Positions 25,564 to 50,600 of a DNA stretch of 64,000 nt are shown piece after piece. Under the pieces are notes generated by a model. The model did no database searches and was not told where the DNA came from. It was given only the letters and a program-made list of their open reading frames with translations. Each line of letters begins with the position of its first letter. Within the stretch, counting starts at the first letter, position 1. Source of the DNA: Macrostomum lignano (taxonomy: Eukaryota); NCBI GenBank assembly GCA_002269645.1, contig NIVC01000620.1, forward strand, positions 186,001 to 250,000, written 5' to 3'. Made by a program: the position numbers and the translations under genes.

Positions 25564-27939
25564 CCGCAAGACTGCGGATGGCCTGCTCTGCAGGTCATGG
25601 TCTCATATCTATGGTCTGCGGCTCAATTTGCTGCTGATATGTGAAAACATTTCTAATGAGTCTTAGTTTGCGGCTGTGGCCTGCAGAGCAGGCCATGAAA
25701 AAGTCGGTTGTTTTAAGTAACTTTTTTGTTCCTTTTAACATCTGATTTTTTCTATACTATGGCGCAACAGGGATACTAAACGAGTTATGAAATGTGAATA
25801 TATTTTCTCAACAGTCATTGGAACAGTGAACAAAAGTTCAAAGGCATGGTGAAAAATTTACGAAAACAAGTAATACGAACAAGTTTAAAATAATATGCGA
25901 GTAATTCAACAACGACCAACAAACATCGATAACACCAAGTACGAGTAGCAGTCATAGGCATAACAGCAGGTGAGTCACAATTTAACAAATAGTTATAATT
26001 AATTTTGATTGGCATGCCAATCTCCGAAGCAGGGCACAGCGCAAAGACCTGGATTTCCCTGACAGTGATCGCAGCAATAGACATTTTTCTTGACTCGGCC
26101 ACTCTTGTAACACTGTCTGCAACGCTTGGCTGGCCGAGCCTGGGCACCTGTTGGCCGGAGGCGCTTCAGGAGATGCTGCTGCCTATTGGGTCCTGTGCCA
26201 GGCTGTGCTTGAATTTGCCGGCTCCGTGCAGGTCCAGTAGTCTGGATGAAGCCCTTGATGGTTAATTCCAAGAACTTAAGGAAGTCGGGACTGGTACACA
26301 ACCCAACCGTTTCTGACAAGGACCAAGAAAAAGTGGGCCCCTAGCTTGGCAAACCACTTTTGTGTCCTTCTGTTTGGGCTATACGGCTGTAGGCCCGAGT
26401 CCAGCTTATCAACACCGCCCATAAAGCTATTGTACGATGTTGCTGTTAGAGGCTTGAGTTCGACAACTTCCTGATTTCCTTGAATGGTGCGGTGAACATG
26501 TTGAATGGCGGCGGCATTTTTGGTGTCAATAAAATACACCGTCTTTGTACCAGATGCCTTTCTGACGACGTACTTCACAGCAAGTACACTGCCGCTTCGC
26601 ATGAAGGCACAGCCTGGAGCGGGCACGGCCAGATCTCTCAATTCAACGGGGACACCGCGGTTTGCACGCACTGTGCAGGTCAGCAGTGTGCCGTGATGCA
26701 GCAGGTAGTCTGCTAGGCGATGCGATCCGAACCAGCTGTCGCAAACGACATGGTAGCCAAGGTCCAGTACATATCGGCATGTCTCAACCAGCACCTTCTC
26801 GCTCATCGAAAGTCCTTCACATCCCAGATCTTGACCAAACTTATCATTCTCGGCTCTGCTCGAATGCACAAGAAAGTTGCAAACATAACCTGTTTTTGCC
26901 TCGCACAAGCAATAAATTTTAATGCCATACCGCGCTTTCTTTGCTGGAATATATTGGCGGAACAGTACTCTTCCTCTGAACAGCACCAGTTCTTCGTCTA
27001 CGCTTAGCTCCTTCTCTGGCATGTACACGTTCCGGCAGATCCGCGACACACAGTTGATGAAGGGCCTGGCCTTAGCCAGAGGATCAGCGGCGTCAAAGTT
27101 GGAGCAGTCATAGAAGCGTAGTAGACTGCTGATCTGCTGAAACCTGTCTCTTGGCAGACATGCTTGCTGCTGGAAGAATGGCGTAGAATAGAAGTCGCTT
27201 TTAGACCAATAGTGGGTCACTTCCGGTTTTTTTACTACTCCCATATAAAGGGACATTGCGACGAACTTTGAAATCTCATTTACAGTGACATCCTTCCAGC
27301 TGGAAAATCGCGATGGTAGCTGTTCATCCTGAAGATCTTCGAACTCGCGCCACGTTCGAGCATTCGTCCAGTCGCACAGCTTCTGTAGCAATTCGGGTGT
27401 CAGAAACATTCGGCTGAAAGCTTCTGGATCTTCGTCAGCGTTCTCGGGTTGCGGCAAATCCGGATTGACACCTGGCATGCCAAGGAACTCCGGGTCCTGA
27501 TTCGGCTTCTGATCTTGGCCAGGGTGGCATGCATGCCAAACATTGGTTGCACCATGGGCAGCGGCCAAGCCTTCATCTACCTCTTGCATTTCCATGCCTC
27601 CTTGTTCGGTTTCGTCCTCATCATCAGTGAAAAAACTGTCGTCTCCTTCTTCAAACTCGGGATCAGTATCAGTATCAAAATGCTCCGCTTGAGCCATAAT
27701 GACGATAAATAGTGTTAAAAAATTGAAAAGGACGTTAATAGAAACTGCTCTAGCTTAAAAAAATGAGCCACAAGCTGTACAAATACAATCCAAAAGTTTC
27801 AAAGACTAAATACTCAGTAGGAGCTGCTACCGCAAACTAAAGACATGTCAGCCAAAGATTAAAAAATGTTCATGGCCTGCAGGGCAGGCCAAGCCGCAAA
27901 CTGTGTCTATGGCATAAACTCATCAACGCAGTCTAGGGG
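25564..27939 (-). mobile_element. piggyBac transposon (2376 bp)
   Basis: TTAA TSD at 25560-25563 and 27940-27943. Imperfect TIRs ccgcaagactgcg / cccctagactgcg, plus subterminal GGCCTGC...GCAGGCC palindromes. Confidence 0.92.
25999..27697 (-). pseudogene. piggyBac transposase with a frameshift before the Cys-rich domain
   Basis: SVDEE, VCDSWF and MGGVDKLD (DDD triad) in 26276-27697; CRQC...YCCDHC...LCAVPCF..WH in 25999-26319. Confidence 0.93.
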
Positions 27940-32777: not shown

Positions 32778-33701
32778 CTACTCTCTCCGATTACGACCTT
32801 CAACCTGCGCAAAATTAATCCCAGTCCTCTTTCTGAAAACCTCCGCGCACCAGACCGAGCCTTCTAGAACTCTGACCGAGGCCAGCCTCCTAGACTCGAG
32901 CGGTACGCCCATCTTCTTAAGCCACTCATCAGTCTTCTTTTCACAACATCCCCTCCAGTTCCAAACCAAACCAATCACGCTCTGGGCACCTGGGCCCGCC
33001 ACCTTCGCGACCTCAGTCGCAAGACCCTCGTCTGAATAATATTTGCTTTTATTGTCCCTAGCGAGGGCCATAGGCCCCGCTCCTCTGTCCGCACAGATCG
33101 TAACGTCAGCAATCCAAACCTTCTCCTTATAAAATATTATTAAATCAGGTCGTCTATGCCCCCTAGGAGTCGCAAAAGACTTTTCCTTCAAAACACTGAA
33201 CCCAAGACGCTCTAACTGGCTCGCAATGAACTCTACCATCCTATCGTGCCTCGCCCCTCTCTTATCCCAAGTCCTGTTGCACTGCTGCAGAATATGCCCC
33301 AATCCCTCAATTTGCCTGCACCCTGCATCACACAGAGGCGCTTGCCTCCTACCTCTGGACGCACAAGCTGCAGTCGGCCAAACATTCCATCTAATTTTCA
33401 GACATTTGATGTACATCTCATCTGTGAGCAGGGACGAACCGTCAGTCACCCAAGAGTGGACTTGTGGGACGTCCGCTGCTTCACCCAAGCCAAAGCCGTC
33501 AAGGTTAACTAACAACTTATTTTTCCAGAACACCCTATAATCAGCTCTATCGTTAAAACTGGTCTGCGCACCTTTGAGTTGGAATCGCTTACGAATGGCA
33601 GGTAGTTGGGCTAAGTCACGGACCAATGCGTCCGGAACCTCTTCGAGGCTCACCAACTTCTGCCATTTGTACATAGGAACGAGCGTAAGTAAATAAGACA
33701 A
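32778..33701 (-). mobile_element. 5'-truncated R2-like non-LTR retrotransposon (CCHC knuckle + restriction-like endonuclease)
   Basis: CDAGCRQIEGLGHILQQC...RHD...RRPDLII...IADVTI...KSKYY. No RT domain remains. Confidence 0.88.
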
Positions 33702-34649
33702 GACAAGTCAGTTAACGTTTATTAATGTGAATAACGGTCACAGGCCGATCCTAAATTATCATTTAAAGCTCAACTGATGTCGCAGTAACAAGCCCTAAGC
33801 CTTATTAGGTGTCAATTTAATGTTGCCCAAACAGCGTAGGTTGTAAGCCACGAGACCGAATCCAGACGGTGTTGAAGGTCTAGCGTGCTGTCGACACAGT
33901 AGCCTGCGGCAGTCTTAATGAGCAATGGCAGCTGCAACGAATGTTTGCTTGTAGGTTATCCCTAGGAAAAACGTCTAGCGAATCTGCCTAAGCTAGTTCG
34001 TCTAGGAAAAGTGTCTGGGAATACTAGCTCTTGCTCGAAGTCAAGCAGGCGGTCTCCGAAGGATCGGACGATGGTCTCTTTTGGGCCCTCACCTACTCCG
34101 TATTTATACTAAAATCGGGGCTCAGGGCCAATAGGAGGCTCAGAGGCAGTTTCGTGGCAGATCCTGTGGCAGTTCCGTGGACTACCTGGAGCCAGGAACG
34201 ATCTCGGAGATCTCCATAAGACATCTTCCTCATCACGAGGCCTCCGCATGGCCTACTGGTACACTGCTTGCATGTTGCAGCATGCAAGGAGTGTACCCCC
34301 AAAATCCCACAGGAGCCTACCCAGGTCGGAGAGCTATGCTCTCGTTCCCGCTGACTAACAAAGACTCTACTAAAAGGAATGTCCCACTGACTAATGTTCT
34401 ATTTTAGCCCATTGCAGCCTGCGCCAGGGGGAGAGGGGGAGAGAGTCTCTCTCCCTGTCCCGCGACAGCTGCACACCCGAGCCTGCACAAGGGATGGGGA
34501 GGAAGGGAAGGGCGCGCTGAAAGCGCACAGACTCTATACCCAGCTCCCAGAGCTACAGCTCAAACACTAACTAACTATGACTAAGCGGGTATCCAAGGCG
34601 CAGCCTATGCTAACTATGCTGGATCACCACACTATATTGAACGTTTCTG

Positions 34650-35300: not shown

Positions 35301-36132
35301 CCCATAATACTTTTGTGTACAACTCTGAGCCTACGGCTTCTGGTGTCTGTACAGCTTTGCCTCCCTTTGAACCTACACGGCTTCTGTTATTTGTACAGCT
35401 TTGAGCCTACACGGCTTCTGGTGTCTGTGCAGCTTTATCTCTGACTCGAAAAACACTAACAAAGATCAGCTTTCTCAGCCAAAAGTCAAGTTTGCAAAAC
35501 TGGTCACAGACCAAGAGCAGAAACGTTAACGAAGTTTTAGCAAAAACCAAGTTGTATATTTTTCTGTTAAATTCAGGCCCTTTATAAAGCAAAAAGGAGG
35601 GGGTAATTGTTACGTTTAAACAAATTATTTGTAAAATATTTACAAAGCTAATTTAAATAAAAATTCTGCGCATTGAAACAAGAAATTCTGTGATTGGTAG
35701 AGAATTATTTCGCAAATCATATTACAAGAAGTAGTATAGTATGCCCCTATTACATAATATAAGATATTGTGTACTTCTAGTGCTTCTAGTGTAACTTTTG
35801 GCAATTGAATTCTTTCAAACTGTATTGGGTGCGGCCATAGACGACTAAGTCGCACACACACCCAGCCATGAGCTAAAGAAACGATGCTTCAAGCTTGGAA
35901 ATAAAAAAATAGAAGTTACGATACATGAAATAAGGCGCTCTGTTCAGGGTGCAAACATTTCGGTGACCTTGTTGATCTTGACTCACTGTCTTCCGCTAGA
36001 GAAGAAGTCATAACAGTGGCGTCGCAAGCAGGAGGGCTAGATGGGCCACTGGGTCGGCCCCGCCCGCTTGTCCCTGGCCGGCGAGGCGCCCCCGCCAGCG
36101 CCCAGCCGCTGCACTGCGTCTATTTGCTGACT

Positions 36133-37190
36133 TTAGGCGGCTTGGTCTATGGGCCTGGCACCGGCCGCGCGGCAGAATTCGGCATACACCTCATAGGAGA
36201 CAGCCTGAACGCTCGCTGAATTGTCGAGCCACTGTTGGAGCGCCGCGCTGGTCCGGGCCATGCTAGTTTTGAAGCTTACTAGCAGGTGCCTCCAGTCGTA
36301 GCTATAATCGGCAAAGCTGTTGCACAGCCACGTGGCGCCATTGCGCACGATCGTAGAGGCACCAAAGCTGTGCAACGGGCGCAGCACCTCGAAGAAGGTC
36401 GAGAGGTGGCCCATGCTGTTGTTGGTGCACTCGAGGTCTAGCACCAACTGGGCTTCGCCGGTCAGGTAGTAGCTGCCCACGTGGTAGCGGGCCCGAGGCT
36501 TATTAGCGTGCTGGATGCCGTTGATCGGGCCAGGCAAGCCCGCAGCGTCGTCGCGCTGGCCCAGCGCACTCTCATCTAGGATTGCTCGCTCTAGATCCAG
36601 GACCTGCATGCAGGCGGCGAGCACATCGGTGGGGATCGCAAAAGCTAGTTTGTGCTTTTGCACAGCACGGGCCATACCGGCCGCTAGGACCAGGCGATGG
36701 GTGCCAGATGGGCAGTCGGTCATTCTCAGGACTACGTCCTGCGCCAGGTTCGTCTGGGGCAAGGCAGGGCTGTACTCCGCGGGCTCTAGTATGCCTTGGA
36801 GGCCCATAGCGCGGAGCAGCCGCTTGGTGCTGGCCCAATGACTGATCGTATGCACCACCTTGGTATAGGTCTCAAGGCAGGCCTCATCAAAGCCGGGCCA
36901 CGTCTAGAGCACCTTGAGGACGTAGCCCTGGAGGGTCCTGCCGCCGGTGTGGTGATTGGTCGCCCACCGCATCACTTTGCTAGCAAGCACAAGGTTTGCG
37001 GCAATGCGCAGCCGGCCCTGGTCCTCATCAATGAGGTGCCTGGTCTCGGCTACATGGGCCGGCTCGAGCTGGGTTGGGGCAGCCTCCACCAGAACGTCTC
37101 CATCTTCCAGTCTTACCCACCCGAGGGCAACGCCCGAAGAATCTTTCCGAGTTAGAATCCTTCCTTGGACTTGTGATGCACTTTTATATA
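36133..37190 (-). pseudogene. Qinviridae-like putative nucleocapsid protein (endogenous RNA-virus gene)
   Basis: KVMRWATNHHTGG...QGYVLKV, HTISHWASTKRLL..MGLQGI, LRMTDCPSGT and RYHVGSYYLTG match motifs I recall from the qinvirus segment-2 protein (not verified). One in-frame TAG joins ORFs 36904-37089 and 36133-36858. Confidence 0.65.
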
Positions 37191-37399
37191 CTTTATTTAA
37201 CTAGTTGGCGACCAGCCCCCCACTCTCCTACCCTCGCACATGACTCAGCGTACATAGCCTGATCGCAACTCTAGCTCATATTTAATGTACATTGCTCAAT
37301 GCTCAATATCGGCAACAGTCAAATATTCTAAATAAATATAATCGCATCGACCGTCTAGGGGCTCTAAGCTTTTTCTCTTCGGCCAGTTCTGCCAAAGCA

Positions 37400-38872
37400 T
37401 ACTTGAACTCTTACAGGACTGATTACGTTCTTCTCGCGATTCATTCCAAACCTTTCTGGAATATCGGCTCCGTTGGTACACCTGAAGCGCAAAGTTGTGG
37501 AGTTTCGTTGGGGCGCAAAAGAACAAAATGCGTTCAGAAATCTTCAGAAATCACTTTCAGAAGACGCTGCTTTGCATGCGTACGACCCAAAGCTACCGGT
37601 TGAGCTCGAAGTAGACGCTTCGCAAATTGCCCTTGGTGGTGTCCCGAGTCAACAAGGACGCCCTGTCTTGTACATCAGCAAACTTTTGTCATCATCGGAG
37701 CGAAATTATTCACAAATAGAGCGAGAAGCGCTTGCGATAATTTGGGGTGTTAGAAGATGTCATCGTTTTCTCTGTGGCAGAAAATTTAAGCTAATAACCG
37801 ACCATCGCCCTCTCGTGTACATCTTAGCTTGTGACATAGAGCTACCATCGAGAGTGTCCGCAAGGCTGCAGTGATGGGCGATATTTCTCACGGCGTACGA
37901 TTACGAGATCGAGCATCGTAAATCTAAAGCTATGGCATCTGACGCGCTCTCAAGATTGGTTCCGCAAGGAAGAAGCGGTGAAACACTCGAGATTGGTAAC
38001 ATTCACACCGTTTCAACTTCACTGTCTCTGGAAGATAGAGGCTGTGAGTCCTTGGGATAGAGTCCATATCGAATTTGCAGGACCGGTCGACAACCGTTAC
38101 ATGCTCGTTCTGGTAGTGGTAGATTCTTACAGCGGATATCCTGAAGTCCATGTTACTAAAGATATGACTTTTCGAACTGTCATTCAGTGTCTCAGGAGGA
38201 CATTTTCTCAGCTTGGAATTCCAAGGACACTTGTGTCAGATAACGGACCATGCTTTATCAGCAAGGACTTTACGGAGTGGTTGGCAGGAATTGACTGTGA
38301 GCACCTAACTATCGCAGCTTATCAGCCACAAAGTAATGGGGTTGCAGAGCATTTCGTACGCACGCTAAAAAAGCATCAAGGCAAATGGCTTTAGTCAAGA
38401 GTCTGTTGACCGCTTCTTTCTGTTTTATCGGACATCAGACAATAAATCGGGATCGTCACCAGCGGAGCAGCTACTGGGGCACAAGCTCAGGGTTCCGTTT
38501 ACTAAGAGGCCAGTCGGACTAGAGGATCCAGTTATCTACAAAAAAGAGAGAGACAGGCCCATCACTGCAAAACTGCTCTTGCCTATCGGAAGGAGCATGG
38601 CCATGATCAAGACAGATGAACCGAACTCGAATTATCGGAAAGTTCACCTGGATCAGCTACATCCGTACAGTCCAACCGGCGAGGAGCCCGCAGAAACCGA
38701 CAGAATGCCACCCGGAGCTGGCGAACACGTGGAAGGGAGAAAACAAGAGGAGCCTCCACAACAAGAGGGGCTGCGTACATCTCCAATCCCTGCGGTTCCC
38801 GAGGATACTATGATTAAACTCAGGAGAAGCATCCGACTTTCGGAGAAACCCAAAGTTAACTATAAGTACTAA
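37400..38872 (+). pseudogene. Gypsy pol remnant: RT C-terminus, RNase H, integrase
   Basis: FIPNLSGISAPL; EVDASQIALGG...ERNYSQIEREALAI...ITDHRPL; PWDRVHIEFAGP, LVSDNGPCF, QPQSNGVAE; terminal LRRSIR. Confidence 0.93.
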
Positions 38873-39877
38873 AATTTGTTTCTCCCGCATTAACTTTAAA
38901 AATTGTTCTTTGCCATTGTAAGGGGGGAGATGTTGGGTGCGGCCATAAACGACTCAGTCGCACACACACCCAGCCATGAGCTAAATAAGCGATGCTTCAA
39001 GCTTGGAAATAAAAAATAAAAGTTCGATAACATGAAATAAGAAGCTCTGTTCAGAGTGCAAACATTTCGGTGACCTTGTTGATCTTGACTCACTGTCTTC
39101 CGCTAGAGAAGAAGTCATAACAAACTGCAACATACTTCATCCACGAAAACGAGAGCTTAATTTAGAATATGCCATAGACAGTAGCGTTTGCGCTAAATGT
39201 TTCATCCCAGTTAGCAAAACTTTTCGTTCTCAGTCCAATTCATTTAACAACTTTAGTTGATAGACTAGCAATAGTTGACCCCCCTTCGGGGAGAGTATTT
39301 AGTACAGTTATTTATCGCAATTGATTAACTAATATTCATAATAATCTCTCTTATTCACCGTATCTATAATTCAATGTCTCAATAATTCAATATGAATATT
39401 CATAAATCAATTTTTATATTCATTCTTATTCATAGGTCTCATTCATTTAGTCATTAATATTTTATTACACTACAATACACCACAGAAAGAAAGAACTCAA
39501 GCTATCTCCATTACAGAATAGAGGATCGAAAAGTAAGAAGGAGAATGTTGGCTATAGACAATTATAGCAATTTTAGCCCCCTCCGGGGAGATGCTCAGGT
39601 TCAGAGCAATGAATTGATTATATTATTTATTTGAAAACAATAGTTATTTTTTTTGTATTATTCTCTTATTTTTTACTGAATCAGATGCATACAGCGTTTA
39701 TTGTCTTATTTTTTTTAGTATCAACAATCAATCAGAATTATTATCAGAATAACATTGCTGCTTCTGCAACACCCAACCCCGGAGATTGACAGTGTGCACT
39801 TTATTGTTATTAAACTTAGCAGCTGCAACACCCAACACCAGAGATTGACTGTGTTGCTTTATCAATGACAATTCTTT

Positions 39878-41031
39878 TTAATCGTCCTCATTGATAGTAG
39901 AATGCGACGGTCCAGCGATTGGAGTAGACTCCATTTGGCCCAGTGACACGTCGCCTCCGCGTTTGTCTCGCGAAAAAATAATTTCGTCGTCTCCGCAGCG
40001 TACTTGCATTATTTGTACATTGCGGAATGATGCGAACATTTCAGGAGAGCACTGGAACACAAATGTGTCCCTCCGAACTTCCTGGTTATCAGGCGGTCTC
40101 GCAGTCGATTGGGTCTTTTGGACTGGCTCAAAGATTTGCTGACTCGACTGAGCCCTTTCAAACCACTCCGTCAAGTCAGAGTCATTGGCAGGATATTGGC
40201 GAACATTGGCCCTGGTACAATTTAGCGAAATATCATTGCCATATTCTTGCACTTGGGCTCCTTGAACCTCTAGGGTGTCGCCCACAGTCCAGTGATTCAC
40301 CAGACTTGCACTGTCGGCCCAGAATGTGCAGGAGACAGACGATGCCGAGTCATCGACCAGTGTCACCTTGGCCAAGTTAGTGGTAGTTCCTCGTTTTGTT
40401 TGGATTTCCCTTTGCGCCATAGTACTGGAAATGACGCCTCGAATGTCAACCTTCCTACATGACCATTGAAGAATTTTGCCATTAATTGTTAATCACATCC
40501 AAAACGAATGTTGCTTAGAATGAATGGTACGAGTACGACTTTAACTTACTTTCTCAGTGTAAAGGTTGAGAGAACGCCAATTTTTATGTACTGGGCTTTG
40601 CGCTGCTGGACAATTTCGTTGCTAGCAACAAGGACTCCATCTTTATCCACTGACAGAGTCATTTCGAGCTCGTTGTCGGTTGAGTTGTACATAGAATTTG
40701 AGGCTTTCAACCAACCACCAGATACGCGCACGGCCGTAGCGTTTTTGCACAAGTAATGGTGTGTTCTCAAATTTGTTCCGAACACGCTTACCCGAATCTC
40801 GCTGTCTTCGTCTGCAAGATTAAAAGAGAACACTTGGCCAGTTCCCTTTGCGTTTGAATAATTTCTGATGTCCGTTAGCATTGACACCAATCCGATTATT
40901 GCGCCCTTTATCATGCCGGACACCAGCGCAGCGATGTTCAGCCTCTGCTGATTGGGCACTGTGTAGGAACCTTCCATTATAATTTGATTAGCACAGTTTA
41001 TAATTGATTTAATTGACAAATCGTAATGCAC
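39878..41031 (-). CDS. RPA70-like ssDNA-binding protein with two OB folds; exons ~41031-40550 and 40454-39878
   Basis: GQVFSFNLADEDSEIRVSVF...SNSMYN...EMTL (DBD-A-like). A GTAAGT...TAG intron at 40549-40455 splices in frame to KVDIRGVI...VTLVDDS...SCTFWAD (DBD-B-like). Confidence 0.8.
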
Positions 41032-41521
41032 TTATCTTTATTGTTGACACGCGGTGGCTGCTGTAGATGAAGAAAGATTATCTTTATTGTTGACACGCGG
41101 TGGCTGCTGTAGATGAAGAAAGATTTAGTTTTGACTTTGATTTGAAGCGTGAATTATTTTTCGGGCTTTAATCCCAACCGCTTAGGCTTACCTGTATGCG
41201 TCATAGACGCCTAAGTGGCACATGTACTTTTTTAACATAGACGTACAAGCTGCGATGTTCTGCTCGAGAATGCGTATCATAGATCACGCACAAACGCACA
41301 CACACACACACACTTGTGCTTTTCCATCGATAACTTGTTATTCAATGACAATCCGATAGAAAGGATATATTTTTCTGTATTTACACATGCGTGTAAGTTG
41401 ACAGTGTGCATTTTATTTATTTATCACGATTGAGCAGCTGCAACACCCAACCCCAGAGATTGACAGTGTGCATACTATTTCGTCTTAATAGTAATTGTGA
41501 GCAATCCTTTTAGATGGCCAT

Positions 41522-44500
41522 TCAAACAGTCAGCACTTCAGGGTACACGACATTTCTCGTCTTATCTCCAGAGATTCGGACCCGTACATTGGCCGCATTC
41601 TTTGCTCGCGACAGCGCAGTGTACAGCTGGCCGTGCGCAAAACAGCCGACAGCCAGGTCGATGCCCACGGTGTCGAGCGACTGGCCCTGTGACTTGTGGA
41701 TCGTCAGGCAAAAGCTCGGCTTAACTGGGAACTGCAGCCGCTTGAAGCAGACTGGCAGGTCAGCATTGTTGGGCTGCAGCGGAATCCTCGGCAGTAAGAT
41801 TTCATCACCAGAGAACTGGCCGGCAGCGACCTTGCAGCGCAGCACGTTCTCGCCCAGCTCCAGGATGATCAGCCGGGTGCCGTTGCACAGCCTTGGCGGA
41901 TTCAGATTCCGCAGCAGAACCAGCGGCATGCCCACCTTGAGCTTAAGCAGGTGAGTAGGAAAGTTCGGAGCATCCAGCTGGTTCAGCAGCTCCGGAGGAA
42001 AGTGCGTGGCCGCTTCCTCGTCAGCCACGCTGTCCACTGAGCGATACTCTCGCAGTTGGCCTGGGAACATTGCCAGGCACTCGCTGTTGATCGCGTCAAC
42101 CGCATCGTTGTAGGGCGCCAGGATTGCCCGGCTTGAAAAGTAGCCGTCACGCTCCGCTGACGCCTCGAACGAAGGGTACACGAACTGGATCAGCGCGGAG
42201 AGCGGCGCCTCTGCCGGAATGACGATCTCGGCAGGAAGGCGGACTGTGTCATCCGACTGATCAGCCGGCCCTGAGCCGATCTGTGCGGGATGTGCAGAAA
42301 ATGCATGAGAATCTCATGTTGCCACGCTCATATAAGCAGCAAGAGAAATATTCACCTGCATGAGCAGTTGCATATAGCGATTGTACAGCTCAGCATCAGC
42401 ACAGCGTTGCAGCCGGATGTTCTTAGAAAGTCTGTGCCTGTGGAATAAAGGCCACAGATTAGATTTGCTTACACAAGCTAAAATGTTGTTTGCCCTGGTG
42501 CCATTCTGCACCACCGGCAGCAACTGGCGAAAGTCTCCAGCGCAGACCAAAACGATGCCGCCGAATGGACGGTCTTGCTTCCGTAGGTCTCGGAGACTGC
42601 GGTCGACAGCCTCCAGATCCTTCCGATTCGTCATGGAGATTTCATCCCAGACTATAAGCCGCACGGTGCGAAACACTGCGGCCTGTCTTGATTGGGCTCG
42701 GACAGAACACACGTCCTTGTCGGTGCGAACCAGCCGCACTGGGATCTTGAATGTCGAATGCGCCGTCTGTCCACCCGGCAGCAGGGTGGCTGCGATGCCA
42801 GACGACGCAACGGCGAGTGCGACTTCCCCTCGACTACGCACAAACGCCAGCAGAACCTCAAGCAAGAAGGTCTTGCCGGTGCCTGCGGGAGCGTCAAGGA
42901 AATGCAGCCCACCTGAGCCATTGTAAATATCCTCAGTCACGGCCTCATAGATGACCCGCTGCTCAGCCGTCAGCATTGGCAGCCGCGTCTCTGTGATCTC
43001 CGCCTGCTCGACCGTGTCGAACTGCTGCGGCCCGACTTGCGGCATAGCGGAGGCAGCAGGAAGTCCGTATTCTGGCAGACTGCTGCCGCCCATTGACGTC
43101 AGCATGCTCTGCAGCTCTCGCAGAGCCAAGTCGCTGACTTCCTCGGCGCTCAGGTCCGGGTTGTGGAATCGCAGGTCTTCGCAGAGATCCTCTGCAAAGC
43201 TGCTCCACAGGTTGGCGCCATCGTCTGGCTCTCCCCAGATGAGGACGACAGCCAGCAGGTGCCTCAGAGCTCGCGGCATTCGGCTCTGGACAGCCTCAGT
43301 CAGGCAGTGGTGCCAGTGGTCATCGCGTTGCAGCAGGCCGAGAGCCATGCAGGCAGCCTTGGCGCTGACGAAATGAACACCGGCCACGGTCTGCAACGAC
43401 TCGAAGCTGGTCGGTCCTCGCACGTGCAGCAGCAGCAGTCGCAGGTAGAACAGATCACCTGCTCTAGGACTAACTGTGTACATGCGAGATATGTTTGAAT
43501 TGCGCTTTACGCCAGGATGCCCTTCGACATCGGCGCCCTGCTTTGCCCGACGCCACTCTCTTGCACTCGGATGCCACACAAAGTAGGAGGCCACCTCGTT
43601 GTAGAGTAGACGCCGAGCAAACTCGTCAGTGCGGCACAGCTTGAAGAAGGCCGTCAGTGTCGAATCTCTGGGCGCCTTGGCTTTGGCGCTGGCGGTCCGC
43701 TCGTTGAAATACACAAGCTGCTCTTCAGACTTGTGCACGCAGAGTCTGATGACCGCCGGGTACCTGTTGTGCACCTGGGTGTTAAGATGTTAAGGATCGT
43801 GTCATTGGAAATAAGATAAAACAGGTAATCACAACTGATTACTCACCTCAAAGGCCAAGATGGTGTTTACAGCTTCCATTGGGCCAATGTAGCGTGCAGA
43901 CAGGTACTCTGAGATTTCGTCACGTGGCTTCTCTAGCTGTTTGACAGGCTGAGCTTCAGTGGCTCCAGCGTCGGCAACTTTGAAAACAGCCATATCGCCA
44001 CTTTTCATCAAATACTTGATTACGTACTTGACAGACTTGACGGTGGCACAAACTTCAACGTTCAAGTGGCATGCGAACTGGAGCAGCAGGTCAGGGTTGT
44101 ATGGCACAACCCACCTAGAGAAAGAAGAAGAAGAAGAAGATAGGAAAGATAGGAAGATAGGATTTAACTGTATAGTACAGAAATGCTATGGCTAAGCATC
44201 TGCAGACTCACCTGTTGTCCATTCGGATGCTGCGGCCCTTGAACAGTTTGTCCACCGTGAAGCCTCCCATCTCAGGAGAGCGCCTCCTGTAGAACGGGTA
44301 CCCGGTGTCGCTGGTCAGCGTCTCCGGCTGAAAGTCCTTCGGGAAGGCCTTGCTGCACTTGCCGTTCTCCATGCAAGGGCAGGCCGGGTTCAGCTCGCCA
44401 CACGGTCCGTGGATCATGTGGATCTTGACCAGCTCGTACAGCACTGGCTGCCGCTGTGGGTCTGGGATCTCCGCAGACACGATGGCATCGTAGCGATCCG

Positions 44501-47164
44501 GAGTGACTCGACTTCCGTTTGCCAGCCACAGCAGAAAGTGCACATAGGGAAGGCCTGTGTTGAATGTTTTATAAATAAGTAATGTCTTATAATTAATCAT
44601 GAGACAAAATACATTAATTATAAGACATTACTTTTTGCAGTTCATCACAGAGAAAACGGATCAACTCACCGCGCTTCTGGTACTCCAGTGAGCAGACATG
44701 CGCAGCTTCCTTGCCAAAGCGCTTCCTGAGCTCTTCAATCAGAGCTTTTTTCTTTAATTCAAACACCCGGGTCACAATGTCCGGACGGTCTTCAGGCCGC
44801 TGACCAGGCAGCAGCTGCACCGTAATCTCTGGCCACTTCGGGTTGCACGTGGCCGTGACAAACAGGTCTGGCTTACCAAACTTGTGCACGTAGGACATTG
44901 CGTCCTGCAGCCTCTCCATCAGGTACCTGGGTCCACCAACAAAACTGGAGGACAGATACACATGAGCAGGCTTACCAATCTCATTGGGATCGGCTTCAGT
45001 GTGCCTGCCATCAGCAGCAAACAGGGCGTCTCTCAGGCCGCTGTAAGTCTCGCTGCGCAGGTCCTCCTGATGAGTCCGCAGGTACAGCAGCCTCTCGGAC
45101 TCGATCTTGGCAGCCATGTCCACCAGGTACTGCTGGAACAGACGCCTGCCGTGGTGCAGCACATTGAACTGGCCAGCTCGCACCATGATTTCGCTGGCGT
45201 AGTACTTCATGGGCGTCAGCTTCCGCCCATTCGCCATCTTCAGCTCCGGGTGCCAGCCGTCCTCGCCATTGGAAAACAGCAGCACGTACTCCAGAGGGTC
45301 ATAGGACCGGTGCGTCTCGGCTATGCGCTGGACTTGGCCACCACGCAGTCGGATCACAACGTCACGATTTGTCGTTGCGTCCTCTGTGCCACCAACGATA
45401 AGAATGCCAACCTCATTGGCCATAGGAAGATTGTAGCGCCTGAGGAAAAATCATATTTTTATATTTTTATATTTTTATATATTGTATCATGTATATATAC
45501 AATATATACATCATAGTTTATTTTGACACCACAAACTCACCGAATGTGTTCCCCTGCTGGTCTTCGGTCCGGGTGAATCACAATTCGCGCATCTCCCAGC
45601 TCAGGGTCGCCACTGATTCGCTGAACAGCAGCTCGAAGGCTTTGCACGTAGCCGTTGGATTGATGCAGCAGAGTTTGCAGCAGCTTTAGCAGCTCCGGCT
45701 TCACTCTCTGACTGAGGCTCAGGCGGCTCTCCAATTCGTGGTCAGTAAAATACACCTGCCAGCCATGCGGCTCGGCTGAGGGGTCGGCAAGCAGCGGCCC
45801 CATATTGTGATGCAGCTGGCCGCTGATGATGAAGCTGGGACTATAGCCAGGCACCATTCTGAGCTTCACACCCAGAGATGTGAGGTGCAGCACCGCATTG
45901 TAGCTCCTGATGTGGGCCAGGAACTCTGCACTGAGTCGGTGCTGCCCCGTGTAAAGATCTGCCAAGACCTGCGGCATCGTACGGGTGGGCAGCTTCACCT
46001 TGCCCTTGGCGCAGCAGAAGTTGCGCGTCTCTTTGGCCCAAAACAATGCGCCACAGTCATTGCAGGCGTTGTTCATTGGTCCACACTGGTGAGCCGGGGC
46101 CTCTGGCAGCAATGGCTCGGCACGCCTGTGAGTACAGTGGAATAAGACATGTTGTGAGGACAGCAGTTCAAATCAAAAAGACAAATGAAGAAGACTCACC
46201 GATGATCACCCGATGCTCCAATGTCGGCACATGAGCTGTGGATGTCAACTGGCACTGCCTTTGAGCCGCTTGCCATTGGCCTGGGACACTCTGCACCTGA
46301 AGAAGCTTGCAGAGACGGTCGAAGTCTGAGCGACTCGTAGTGCTCGTGACTCAAGAGCACACGCACAGTGGCATTGGGAGGCTGCTTGTCACACTTGAAA
46401 TATTGCAGCACATTACCATTGGACTGGTAAATCACCAGGTCCATGTCAAAGCAGCTACTAAACAGAGCTGCCACTTCGTCTGAAATATAAACCCCTTCCT
46501 GAAAGGAGGAATTCGCAATCTCATCGGCGCAATCAGGCGCGATGATGCCATTCGCGACCAACTGTGGCAAAAGTTCAACTGCACGACAGGCCAACTCGTG
46601 CCGAAGGGTAGCGGCATCGGTTTCATGCGGTGTGCCACGTAGCTGGTCGCACACGGCATGAAAAAAGCAGTTGCCATCGCCAATGGTGGTATTGACCTGC
46701 AACTGACTAAAGGGCACAATAGATTCGACACAAGGTAACCTGGTGACAGATTCACCGCGCCGACAATCAGCCTGTCTCTGCCGCTGCTCTTCCAGACGGG
46801 TAATCCGCTCAGCCTCGTCCTCAGCAGCGCGAAACTCAGCCTGTCTCTGCCGCTGTTCCTCCAGACGGGCAATCCGCTCAGCCTCGTCTTCAGCAGCGCG
46901 AAACAAAGCCTGTCTCTGCCGCTGTTCCTCCAGACGGGCAATCCGCTCAGCCTCGTCTTCAGCAACGCGACACTCAGCCTGTCTCTGCCGCTGTTCCTCC
47001 AGACGGACAAACCGCTCAGCCTCGTCTTCAACAGCGCGGCGTTCGGCGTCTCGCCGCCGCTGCTCTTCCAGACGGGCATCGCGCTCTCCAGCAGACTCGG
47101 CCAGTCGTCTTTTCTTTGCGTCACGGCTTCTCTTCAAATGGCTTGCGCCACGGCGCACCATCAT
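41522..47164 (-). CDS. Helitron RepHel: charged repeats, OTU, Zn finger, Rep (HUH/Y2), Pif1 helicase; multi-exon
   Basis: GDGNCFFHAV/HYESL (OTU); CNDCGALFW...CCAKGKV; FVTATCNPKW, EYQKRG|LPYVH, YVIKYLMK (Rep); DAPAGTGKT, IVWDEISM, GDFRQLLPV, TIHKSQGQS, HGQLYTALSR (Pif1). GT-AG introns lie between the ORF blocks. Confidence 0.92.
46760..47100 (-). repeat. 69-bp coding tandem repeat (RLEEQRQRQA...AEDEAERIA) in the RepHel N-terminus
   Basis: About 5 units, period 69 nt. Confidence 0.9.
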
Positions 47165-47612
47165 ACAGTGGGGCTAAATAGATAAAGCACTATTAGAGGG
47201 TTCAAAAACCAAAGAAAAGAAAGAAGGAAAGGAAGCAGTGGGCTACATAAAAACCAAGCAGCCTACAGCTATTAGCATTATAATCTATGGCCAAAACCGT
47301 TTTCAAGCTCTCACTGCCGAAAAAATACATTAGCGAGATGGGCAAAAACCTGTTTTCTGACAATTGAGAGGCCTCTTTAATTTGGATAGCTTATTAAAAA
47401 TACGTGTACCGATTCCGGACAATTTGCCATCTAATGGTGCAAAAACGGAGAAAATCGGTCATTCCGTTCGCAAGATTTTCTGTTACAAGCAAACAAACAA
47501 ACAAACAAACTCAACTTTAGTAAATAAGAAAAACTAATAGTGTCAGCATTAGAAGATTAACTATCTATGTTAGTCTAGGGGACGAAATTTTTTGTAGTTT
47601 GGGCAAAATCAA

Positions 47613-50600
47613 AGTCTTAATTTATTTGCACCACGGTGCAGATAAATGCCGCTACCTCCTCGTGGTCAGAGTGGAGAGCCGCGCTTAACTGCTGCGGCGG
47701 CCAAATGCGGCAGGACTAAGCGAGGGCAGCGGAGCGCCCGTCGGCGTGTTGAGCGTCGGCGTGAGCGGAACCGACGAGGCCGGCTGCGTGGCGCCGCCCG
47801 TCGAACTGCCGCGCGGGTCCACTCAGATCCTCCGGGTGGCGCCGGGGACCGTGAGGCTCAACTGCATCAAGCCCCAGCCGTACCACAGGGCATGCTTCGG
47901 GTCGGGACGCTGAACTGCCGCACTCTCAAGGCTACTTGGCGTAGAGGTGTGCTGGCGAAGCTAGCGTACGACCTGAGCTGCGACGTCATTTCGCTACAGG
48001 AGGTGTCTATCAAGGCCGACCCGGGACTTCATTGTGAGGACTTGGGCGCCGGGTGGACCCTCTTCTATACTTCTGCGGACCAGCGAGGTCGTGGAGGAGT
48101 TGGAGCGCTGATCGGGCCGAGGCTGCAGCAGAGCTGTCGCTGCGTCTCCCCCCCCCCCCCGGTTGCTTCGGATCGACGTCCGGCTTCGCGGTCGGAATGC
48201 TCGCCTGTTCTGCGCGTACGCGCCCCCTGCCACACGCCCTGACGAGGCTCAAGAGTTTTTTGAGCAGCTCTCAGCGCAGGTAGAGGCGACGGCGCAGCGT
48301 GACACAGCGGTCGTCCTCGGAGACCTGAACGCAGACCTGCGTAGGTCCGAGAGGTCGCTGTTCGTGACGTGGTGGGAACAACAACACCGAGGCATTGGAG
48401 GACTTCCTGGAGAGGCAGGACATGGTGTCGGCCAACACCCGCTTCCGCAAGCCACTGAGTGGTCTCGCAACCTTCGTGGGCTGCAAGCGGAGGCGACGGA
48501 ACGCGCGTGGCAGGAACGCAACCCGGAGACAAGCACAGCTCGACCACGTGCTCGTACGTTTCCGTGAGCGTCGTCGCGCCGTCAACTGCCGTACCATCAC
48601 GCCGCTGGCTCTGCGGTCCGATCACCGGCTCCTCATCTGCAACCTCAACCTTCGCGATCCGCTCTACCGTCCGCCGAAGCGGCCACCGCAGCGCTACTAC
48701 CGCGCGCTCAGAACCACCGATACGCAGCGTCGCTTTGCTAGCGCCTTTAACGCCGCGCTGGGCGACAAGCGTGGAAGTGCCGAGTATGCGGAAGTTTGCG
48801 CTGCAGTCAGAACCGCCGCGGAGCAAGCAGTCCCGATGATGCAACCGGCTCAACGTGGGAAGCCGGTCTGGCAGGACGACCCCGCGATTCAGGCAGCGAG
48901 GGAAGATCTGGAGAGGCTCCGCTTGAGCAGGCGACCAACCCGCGAGGCAGAGGTAGCTCTGGCAGCTGTCTACCTGCAGCGCCAACAAGCGGATGTCGAT
49001 GACGCCATTCAGGCTGTCTCTGCCGCTGGGCCCGATGCCAGAGGGCGCGTGGCCTGGTCCACCATCAACGCTCTGACGGGGCGAAAGCGGCGCAATCCAC
49101 TGAACTGGCTGGTGACACTCCGGACGAGCGCAGGAACGAGCTGCGCGAGTTCTTCGCCGCCATCTTTAACGCGCCGCCACCCCCGCTGCCAGACAATCTG
49201 ACACTGCCGCCGGAGACGCCGTTGCCGGCAGAGGAGAGTTTCAGCGTAGCCCCAGTCAACGCAGCCGACGTTGTCAAGCTCGCCCAGCAGTCACCGGGCG
49301 GGTCCGGACGAGGTGCCTATCGAGGCGTTGCGCATCCCCTGTGTTGCCGCTGAGGTCGCCAGAGTGATGAACCGCGTGCTCTTCGGTGAGGCGGCGCCCA
49401 ACGAATGGACCACGGCGCACATCGTCGCTGTTCCAAAGAAGCCGGGCATCACTAGGCTTGAAGACCATCGAGGCATCTGCCTTCAGTCCTGTGCAGCGAA
49501 GCTGTTCAACCGGATGCTGCTTTCGCGGTTGCAGCCCGTGCTGGATCCGTACCTGCGCCCAGAGCAGAACGGGCTCCGGCCCTATCGCGGCACAGTGGCG
49601 CAGATCCTGGCTCTTCGCGGAGTCATCGAGGAGGCGTGGATTCGCCAGTCGATCCTGATTCTAATCTTTATTGATTTCAAGAAGGCATTCGACTCGGTTG
49701 TCAGAGCCGTGCTTCCAATGGTTCTCCGCGCGTACAACGTGCCTGGGCAGCTGATCTCCGCCATCATGGCGATGTATCGTGATACGACAGCTGCTGCGAC
49801 AACACCGGACGGCCTATCGGACTCCTTTAAGATATTCTCCGGAGTGCTTCAGGGAGATACGCTGGCGCCGTTCCTGTTCGTCCTGGTGCTTGACTGGGTG
49901 CTGCGGACTGCTCTTCCTACCGACGACGACGGCTTTCTGCTGCGGCGACGCGTGGGTCGACGTCAACCGGAGAAGCGGCTCATCGTGCTTGGCTACGCCG
50001 ACGACCTCGCCCTGCTATCCTCGACCGTCGAGGGCGCCCTACGGCAGCTGGACAGGCTAGTTGCCGTTGCGGCGAGCGTCGGCCTGGTGGTCAACACGCA
50101 GAAGACCGTTGTGCTCTGCGTGCCGGACGACATCGAGGCTGCAATATTCTGCCGAGGCGCTGACGGGCAGGCGACCGAGCTCCCGCGATGTCAGCAGTTC
50201 TTCTACCTCGGCGGTCTGGTTCCAGACGCTCGCGAGGACCTGCGACGCTGCCGCGGACTTGCCTGGGCTGACTTTCGTTCTGTGAGGGCAGTCCTGCAGT
50301 CCGAGGCCCTACCGGACCGCCAGAGGGCGGCGCTGTTCCAGGCGGTAATCGAGACCGTCCTGCTCTACAACGCCGAGACCGTCCTGCTCTACAACGCCGA
50401 GACCGTCCTGCTCAACAACGCCGAGAACTAGACGCTGACGGACTCGCTCAAACAGCAAGTCGATGCGGCGCACGCTGGCCTGCTGCGCGCCTCCTTCAAC
50501 ATCGGCGTCGAGCGAGTCAACAACGCGGCACTCTATCGCCGCGCTGGCCTGCCACGTCCAAGCGATCTACTGCGCCGTCGGCGACTCCAGCCCGCAGGCC

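Follow-up and report, generated by a model that had tools for sequence, protein, structure and literature searches.

Introduction

The capture of RNA-virus sequence by long terminal repeat (LTR) elements is already known from several systems (Cotton et al., 2016, PMC5177903; Tan et al., 2016, PMC5131818; Whitfield et al., 10.1101/127498; reviewed in PMC3205384). The conversion of non-retroviral RNA into heritable DNA has mostly been deduced from the proximity of transposons. Here we describe a locus of the flatworm Macrostomum lignano at which junctions, LTRs, target-site duplication (TSD), near-intact relatives and the priming tRNA can be compared in one genome. The locus lies in a stretch of 64,000 nucleotides (the window), positions 186001-250000 of contig C620 (NIVC01000620.1) in the genome assembly that was searched (G000, GCA_002269645.1). 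It is a decayed Gypsy element, present as a single insertion, in which gag, protease and most of the reverse transcriptase (RT) have been replaced by an antisense fragment of a qinvirus-type nucleoprotein (N) gene, likely captured in one round of reverse transcription, a reading to which we assign a probability of roughly 0.7. Relative to the systems cited above, the novelty lies in the record preserved at the junction and in the antisense polarity. Plus-strand transfer is the specific step suggested by the tRNA-length junction, and the strand of the template is suggested by the orientation; together they yield a testable rule: extensions of the primer-binding site (PBS) to tRNA position A58 at the junctions of endogenous viral elements (EVEs) with LTR elements in other genomes. 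As a working element, single and broken, the chimera is unremarkable.

The closest described system is eBxnv-1 of Bursaphelenchus xylophilus, in which the RNA-dependent RNA polymerase (RdRp) gene of a nodavirus lies within a Bel/Pao LTR element (Cotton et al., 2016, PMC5177903). Both loci hold an RNA-virus gene in a two-LTR element that keeps its PBS, polypurine tract (PPT) and pol remnants and has lost gag, and both are single; eBxnv-1 is present in some strains only, as filled and empty alleles occur here, and copy-choice during reverse transcription was proposed for it. However, eBxnv-1 carries the RdRp of a positive-sense virus, with conserved catalytic sites and expression, whereas the present chimera joins a Gypsy element to the N gene of a negative-sense virus, in antisense, broken and with a tRNA-length junction. 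LTR-mediated retroposition of cellular mRNAs likewise replaces internal open reading frames (ORFs) by a partial gene, with both LTRs kept (Tan et al., 2016, PMC5131818); the short similarity at its junctions is hinted at in our case on the PBS side. In contrast, our donor is viral, the return step apparently consisted of transferring plus-strand DNA onto an end extended by the tRNA, instead of switching a second time, to RNA of the element, and the chimera did not re-transpose, as some retrocopies did. The main text of that study uses neither the word PBS nor the word tRNA. Non-retroviral EVEs of Aedes aegypti lying beside Ty3/gypsy elements share the Gypsy link, the template-switch hypothesis and the possible role as a small-RNA source, but their enrichment is strongest where EVE and element have the same orientation, with antisense RNA arising through cluster transcription (Whitfield et al., 10.1101/127498), whereas N lies opposite to the element at both of our loci of certain polarity. 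Recombinant cDNA of lymphocytic choriomeningitis virus and intracisternal A-type particles provides a further parallel, in that RNA of a virus with a segmented negative/ambisense genome is copied into DNA and integrated by an LTR retrotransposon; the case is somatic and experimental and not fixed in a germline (reviewed in PMC3205384).

The Qinviridae have a bisegmented negative-sense RNA genome and are defined on the RdRp, and their S segment encodes the nucleocapsid protein (PMC10721934, the profile by ICTV, the international committee for virus taxonomy). A qinvirus RdRp EVE in ants has been reported (PMC6540820), and arthropod qinvirus EVEs have been noted (PMC6955108). The hosts listed in the ICTV profile do not include flatworms, and the N fragments of this genome form a separate clade on a long stem; an undescribed qinvirid-like lineage appears to have entered the germline several times in a host group outside that profile. 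Among the titles and abstract openings of openly accessible papers, we found no qinvirus N inside an LTR element and no tRNA-extended EVE junction.

Structure of the Chimeric Element

The chimera is bounded by a direct repeat of AACTG (35818..35822 and 39123..39127) and by two LTRs of a Gypsy family (35823..36015 and 38931..39122), separated from each other by nine substitutions and three gap columns; the 3' LTR has the form TG..CA, and the 5' LTR opens with TA instead of TG and ends with CA. A PBS for tRNA-Ser(AGA) occupies 36017..36034, of which the 14 nt shared by the family reach 36030, and a PPT lies at 38920..38930. Paired LTRs, TSD, tRNA PBS and PPT are hallmarks of Ty3/Gypsy elements, and all four, already named in a preliminary reading of the letters without database searches (the sequence-only reading), were confirmed. 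Between PBS and PPT the viral fragment (36031..37133, minus strand) is followed on the plus strand by a 38-nt piece of the RT tail directly past the viral junction (37134..37171, pol residues about 702-714), by the remainder of the RT tail with RNase H (37416..38035, residues 712-921, one stop) and by the integrase core and C-terminus (38038..38869, residues 1039-1312, frameshift near 38369), in keeping with the PR-RT-RH-IN order of Ty3/Gypsy elements. Residues 922-1038, including the HHCC zinc finger of the integrase, are missing through a deletion of ~352 bp at 38035/38038. Compared with one intact copy, the RT/RNase H block differs by 17 synonymous codons, nine non-synonymous codons and one stop.

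The RT tail is interrupted at 37172..37415 by a 244-bp sequence on the plus strand, across which 37134-37171 runs straight into 37416 in Gypsy relatives. Because this sequence has TG..CA ends, is flanked by a GGACT duplication (37167-37171 and 37416-37420) and has relatives (L087-L089) followed by a tRNA-Ser PBS, it is the solo LTR of another family. The RT tail, RNase H and integrase recognised in the sequence-only reading are present, albeit with a solo LTR inside the RT, without the zinc finger, and with one stop and one frameshift.

A search of G000 with the LTR gave 40 scored matches out of 69 candidates, the best non-chimeric one being 91% identical. Seven LTR pairs ~4.2 kb apart define elements of 4.39-4.42 kb, each with a distinct TSD and with LTRs 97.4-100% alike, and three of these seven full-length relatives carry an uninterrupted single ORF of 1313-1314 codons. 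The chimera aligns with intact copies as far as 36030 and resumes at 37134, so that about 2.1 kb (pol residues 1-701, comprising gag, protease and most of the RT) has been exchanged for 1.1 kb of GC-rich DNA. The RT-side junction corresponds to element position 2321-2331 in five of the seven copies; one more copy is shifted by an indel, and L052 lacks a motif match. Comparison with the intact copies revealed no duplication around the N insert. Because ~2.1 kb is missing where 1.1 kb sits and no duplication flanks it, the insert is a replacement and not an insertion; internal ORFs are replaced rather than interrupted in LTR-mediated retroposition as well.

Identity and State of the Viral Fragment

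The minus-strand frame of the insert has a GC content of 0.60-0.64 and one internal TAG (36904-36906). Its 256-residue open part matches 101 proteins at E<=1e-3 (phmmer, 1.84 billion representatives). Among 20 homologues that were looked up, most of them on contigs of 1.3-2.9 kb, in keeping with S segments, one is named for a virus, Wuhan insect virus 15 of the Qinviridae (P0033, E 1.4e-7); pairwise, the fragment is 28% identical to the protein of this virus (YP_009342457) over 250 columns (E 8e-23) and shares its motifs NHH, HW.ST, P.GTH and H.G..YLTG. A profile built from 69 homologues, with the window row excluded, scores the N of the window at E 1.9e-63, the homologues having been recruited with the same query. 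One homologue cluster includes a protein from a beetle genome labelled capsid protein. A structure model from the 70-row alignment, which leans on these homologues, reached a pLDDT of 85, and in a fold search of BFVD it retrieved eight structures at E<=1e-3, comprising six from qinviruses or qin-like viruses, one unnamed and one from a yue-like virus. In a wide PDB search with the model, paramyxovirus and bornavirus nucleoproteins led, the top six being mononegaviral N proteins at Z 5.0-6.0 and root-mean-square deviations of 5-7, a signal that is weak alone; fold kinship with a yue-like virus and, weakly, with paramyxovirus N fits the ICTV profile (PMC10721934). Taken together, homology and predicted fold identify the insert as a piece of a Qinviridae-type segment-2 (N) gene, as the sequence-only reading had suggested from its motifs.

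Other searches were less informative. A Pfam search gave no family for the fragment and none common to the 70 aligned proteins; a word-indexed protein search gave no match with the single fragment and only seven unnamed proteins with the alignment; the ESM Atlas offered nothing beyond leads below 0.9; the PDB yielded no sequence match and, with Foldseek, none at E<=1e-3; and a scan of viral contigs with P0011 revealed no polymerase beside a homologue.

The fragment corresponds to profile positions 82-394 of 434 and lacks a start codon at its beginning, the RT junction. A TAA at 36133-36135, where the ORF had been thought to end, stands opposite a sense codon of a paralogue on contig C500, and N-like coding continues, via a frameshift within the last 100 nt, up to the PBS. 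Because the paralogue reads through in frame and N-like coding reaches the PBS, this TAA is not the end of the N gene. With nonsense codons at 36904-36906 and 36133-36135 and the frameshift, the insert is an internal, broken piece with neither start nor natural end. The sequence-only reading had described a GC-rich antisense ORF of ~1.05 kb with one nonsense codon, spanning 36133-37190 and separated from the 5' LTR by about 120 bp. Frame, composition and the TAG at 36904-36906 hold, whereas the breaks are more numerous, no spacer exists, and the distal end is not viral, 37134-37171 being Gypsy RT read in reverse and the rest, to 37200, lying in the solo LTR.

The Primer-Binding-Site Junction

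The priming tRNA is tRNA-Ser(AGA), with 17 exact pattern matches, and four of five tested loci were called tRNA genes. An exact pattern of LTR end plus PBS retrieved 11 rows, nine non-chimeric and two chimeric (the window and C859, the other copy of the chimera). In all nine non-chimeric rows, the closest subfamily included, the match to the tRNA 3' end is 14 nt long. In the chimera it comprises 17 of 18 nt in the window and all 18 in the C859 haplotype, and then ends; the 18-nt variant is also present in the public run X1. These 18 nt correspond to tRNA positions 76-59, the next base being A58 (standard numbering, own count). Given the composition of the insert, the chance of four extra tRNA-matching letters is about 0.003-0.004.

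Retroviral plus-strand strong-stop DNA terminates before 1-methyladenosine 58 (m1A58) (PMC13191261); no passage on A58 was found in PMC12789967. Because the PBS match is extended exactly to A58, beyond the 14 nt of the family, capture during reverse transcription, with plus-strand transfer, is likely. The sequence-only reading had also favoured capture of viral RNA during reverse transcription, a view that gains support from this signature, which it had missed. At the codons overlapping the tRNA-matching letters, the C500 paralogue encodes L-L-A, as does the window, which suggests a probable likeness of the viral RNA to the tRNA end at this point, that is, microhomology; such a resemblance would supply what an annealing step requires.

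Copy Number, Alleles and Age

A DNA search of G000 with the insert gave matches only at C620, C859 and C500. C859 holds the sole near-identical copy, with 17 differing columns over 3.3 kb and the same TSD, and stays collinear for tens of kb with the window, at 96-99%, barring large insertion polymorphisms; it is the same insertion on the other haplotype or a duplicate, and other loci of G000 likewise come in two to four near-identical copies. Some part of the element stretch is contained in 15 of 24 listed runs. In run X1, one contig (record 3, 36001-37157) spans both insert junctions, and because this run is independent, the chimera is not an assembly artefact; the same run contains the empty allele, with a joint of 35815 to 39121 that skips 3305 nt. 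No second flank for the chimera was seen among the matches listed for four runs.

The LTRs of the chimera differ by 0.049-0.054 (Kimura two-parameter distance; ~5%), which makes it older than the intact copies, with the proviso that its two LTRs may stem from different templates. The element is thus a decayed single insertion and not a spreading hybrid. Same junctions with different TSDs, proposed earlier as the mark of a mobile non-autonomous unit, were not found in the DNA search of G000: both copies have the same TSD and flanks, and the only near-identical match outside the window, C859, is the same site. A nucleocapsid serving in place of Gag, which had also been suggested, is at odds with a fragment that is antisense to the LTR, without a start, truncated and broken; judging from the sequence, the LTR promoter would yield antisense RNA at most and no nucleocapsid. 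In run X11, which is only guessed to be RNA, insert and flanks have similar low depth, and expression is neither supported nor refuted. The sequence-only reading was therefore right on the protein and the broad mechanism and overstated on function.

Other N-Like Loci and Viral Fragments

Protein searches of G000 revealed at least four N-like loci. A second, independent chimera on C2101 (L118:4624-5447; duplicate C2176) contains the N-terminal half of a related qinvirus-type N, which abuts in antisense the integrase of another Gypsy family at L118:5141, with the same polarity as in the window. This family is 57% identical in amino acids to that of the window and 86-87% in DNA to three other loci; a 60-bp repeat of it follows, and the other side is cut by a mariner-type transposase remnant. 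N is thus antisense to the element at both loci of certain polarity, and two cases prove no rule.

The third fragment, on C500 (L011:2969-5714; 73% amino acid identity), is flanked on one side by a complete TG..CA repeat of ~920 bp and on the other by the final ~279 bp of the same ~930-bp LTR-like family, inside an ATAT duplication, an arrangement that resembles the jump of strong-stop DNA onto viral RNA. The orientation of this family was sought with an exact pattern of LTR end plus TGG, which gave no match, and no PBS or PPT was found in the flanks examined. Between the window and C500 N sequences the non-synonymous divergence (dN) is 0.19 and the synonymous (dS) 2.65, with third positions accounting for 142 of 236 differences; because these differences follow purifying selection on viral genes, the two are separate captures, from different viruses or strains. 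The fourth (L013:4604-5494 on C1377; also C247, C4099 and C3130) is a C-terminal half with an Ala/Pro/Gly-rich tail at one locus present as four near-identical copies, of which one is open and others have frameshifts or stops; no retroelement hallmark was found there. In a FastTree analysis (76 rows, three of them under half filled; Shimodaira-Hasegawa (SH) support without bootstrap), the four genomic fragments and one environmental fragment form a clade of their own on a long stem (SH 100).

PF00946 has 13 matches in G000. One belongs to a nyami-like polymerase fragment (L139:5413-6998 on C498; duplicate C497), whose 461-residue open stretch is 88% identical to Macroli virus, listed in the ICTV update from a macrostomid flatworm transcriptome, which accords with a host of this group; the fragment represents a recent endogenisation. 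It is followed, in sense, by a weak match to DUF5641 (BEL/Pao-type; E 5.6e-7), and no polymerase sequence links it to a Gypsy RT 3 kb away. More decayed Mononegavirales-type polymerase fragments occur on C1166, on C1292/C4304/C838 and on C56, one of which could be the missing qinvirid L.

A separate observation concerns L113:1001-6278 (C3503), where a minus-strand ORF of 556 residues that does not resemble pol is enclosed by two sequences distantly related to the 244-bp solo LTR. The start of the ORF recurs just beyond, and the arrangement may reflect a tandem duplication or a further captured gene.

A Model for the Capture and Its Alternatives

We propose that minus-strand DNA was primed by tRNA-Ser(AGA) and extended through U3, PPT, integrase, RNase H and the RT tail, until, at about element position 2321, the RT would have moved onto a co-packaged viral RNA. 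Because minus-strand synthesis copies its template into the plus strand of the element and the N ORF lies on the minus strand, the template should have been N-antisense RNA, most simply the negative-sense genome of the S segment. After ~1.1 kb, PPT-primed plus-strand strong-stop DNA with an 18-nt tRNA copy, ending at m1A58, may have annealed to the viral cDNA via short similarity, in place of the element's own 14-nt PBS. The two-LTR product would then have integrated normally with a 5-bp TSD and decayed by nonsense codons, frameshifts and the integrase deletion, the solo LTR being inserted at some point. Anatomy, homology, junction sequences, the single site and the breaks were observed, whereas the order of these steps and the identity of the template are what we infer.

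Several points weigh against this scheme. The assembly lacks the subfamily to which the chimera itself belongs, and a progenitor with an 18-nt PBS is possible; the nine comparison rows represent about eight insertions (C1 and C3276 share flanks) and were chosen by exact pattern. In yeast Ty1/Ty3, strong-stop DNA extended by 12 nt of tRNA is a dead end, and the inherited PBS sequence does not come from the tRNA (PMC5371799); by analogy, the use of such DNA must here have been aberrant, an 18-nt stop in this family being itself presumed. Of the four extra letters, two or more recur in the C500 paralogue and may have come from the virus and not from the tRNA; microhomology is not clear at the RT-side junction and is hinted at by C500 on the PBS side. 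The nyami-like fragment, lying in sense with its weak BEL/Pao-type domain, indicates that antisense capture is no rule in G000, and a cognate qinvirus polymerase was not identified, the best of the PF00946 matches being nyami-like and the others unclassified.

An ordinary double template switch, following the model of Tan et al., would take the RT to the foreign RNA and, where the PBS ends on its 3' side, back to RNA of the element; the four additional tRNA-matching letters would then be viral by chance or a legacy of a lost progenitor with a longer PBS. Replaced internal ORFs between retained LTRs (PMC5131818), the partial PBS extension of C500 and the missing parent subfamily fit this route, but we regard it as unlikely, given the 14-nt limit in all nine non-chimeric rows and a match that stops precisely at A58 (chance about 0.004). 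The same RT steps could also have started from an antisense host transcript, such as a small-RNA precursor, made from an N copy endogenised earlier. The genomic RNA of viruses is as a rule encapsidated and less accessible, and further N-like loci exist in G000; yet a source copy was not found, and the nearest other locus is 71% identical in DNA, with a divergence patterned like viral coding evolution, which renders a host template quite improbable.

The single insertion, the later damage within the element and an RT-side junction without clear microhomology would suit a post-integration accident, in which viral cDNA served to repair, at the DNA level, a break in a full-length Gypsy copy, as had been foreseen for a single-copy chimera with insertion hallmarks inside the element. 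A single insertion is indeed what was found, but a junction exactly at the PBS end, with tRNA-matching letters absent from the element, speaks against such repair, as do the second chimera of the same polarity and the alleles seen at the site, filled and empty, without an intact one, and we judge it very improbable. Least credible is a non-autonomous chimera still able to move, by which a viral gene is spread or a nucleocapsid takes the place of Gag. It has LTRs, PBS and PPT, and proteins might be supplied in trans by intact single-ORF relatives, whose LTR pairs are 97-100% alike; against this, both copies occupy one site, the LTRs are ~5% apart, and N is antisense, lacks a start and is truncated and broken.

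Beyond capture in a single round, one may speculate that Gypsy elements of this host repeatedly copy the negative-sense genome of an undescribed qinvirid lineage and are rescued by tRNA-extended strong-stop DNA, each capture forming an LTR-driven antisense cassette against N mRNA. We hold this broader proposal to be doubtful; if true, it would provide a heritable source of antiviral small RNAs outside insects, ready-made and requiring no insertion into a piRNA (Piwi-interacting RNA) cluster.

Genomic Surroundings

The chimera sits in a transposon-dense region and not evidently in a gene. Nearby features of the window are what we take to be a piggyBac-like transposase (26276-27754), the end of an R2-like endonuclease (32778-33707) and an RTE-like long interspersed nuclear element (47646-50431). 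In addition, an 8.2-kb insertion at 39265-47511, absent from the C859 haplotype, contains helicase-like and RPA OB-fold (oligonucleotide/oligosaccharide-binding) ORFs and looks like a Helitron, the helicase label coming from ORF reading.

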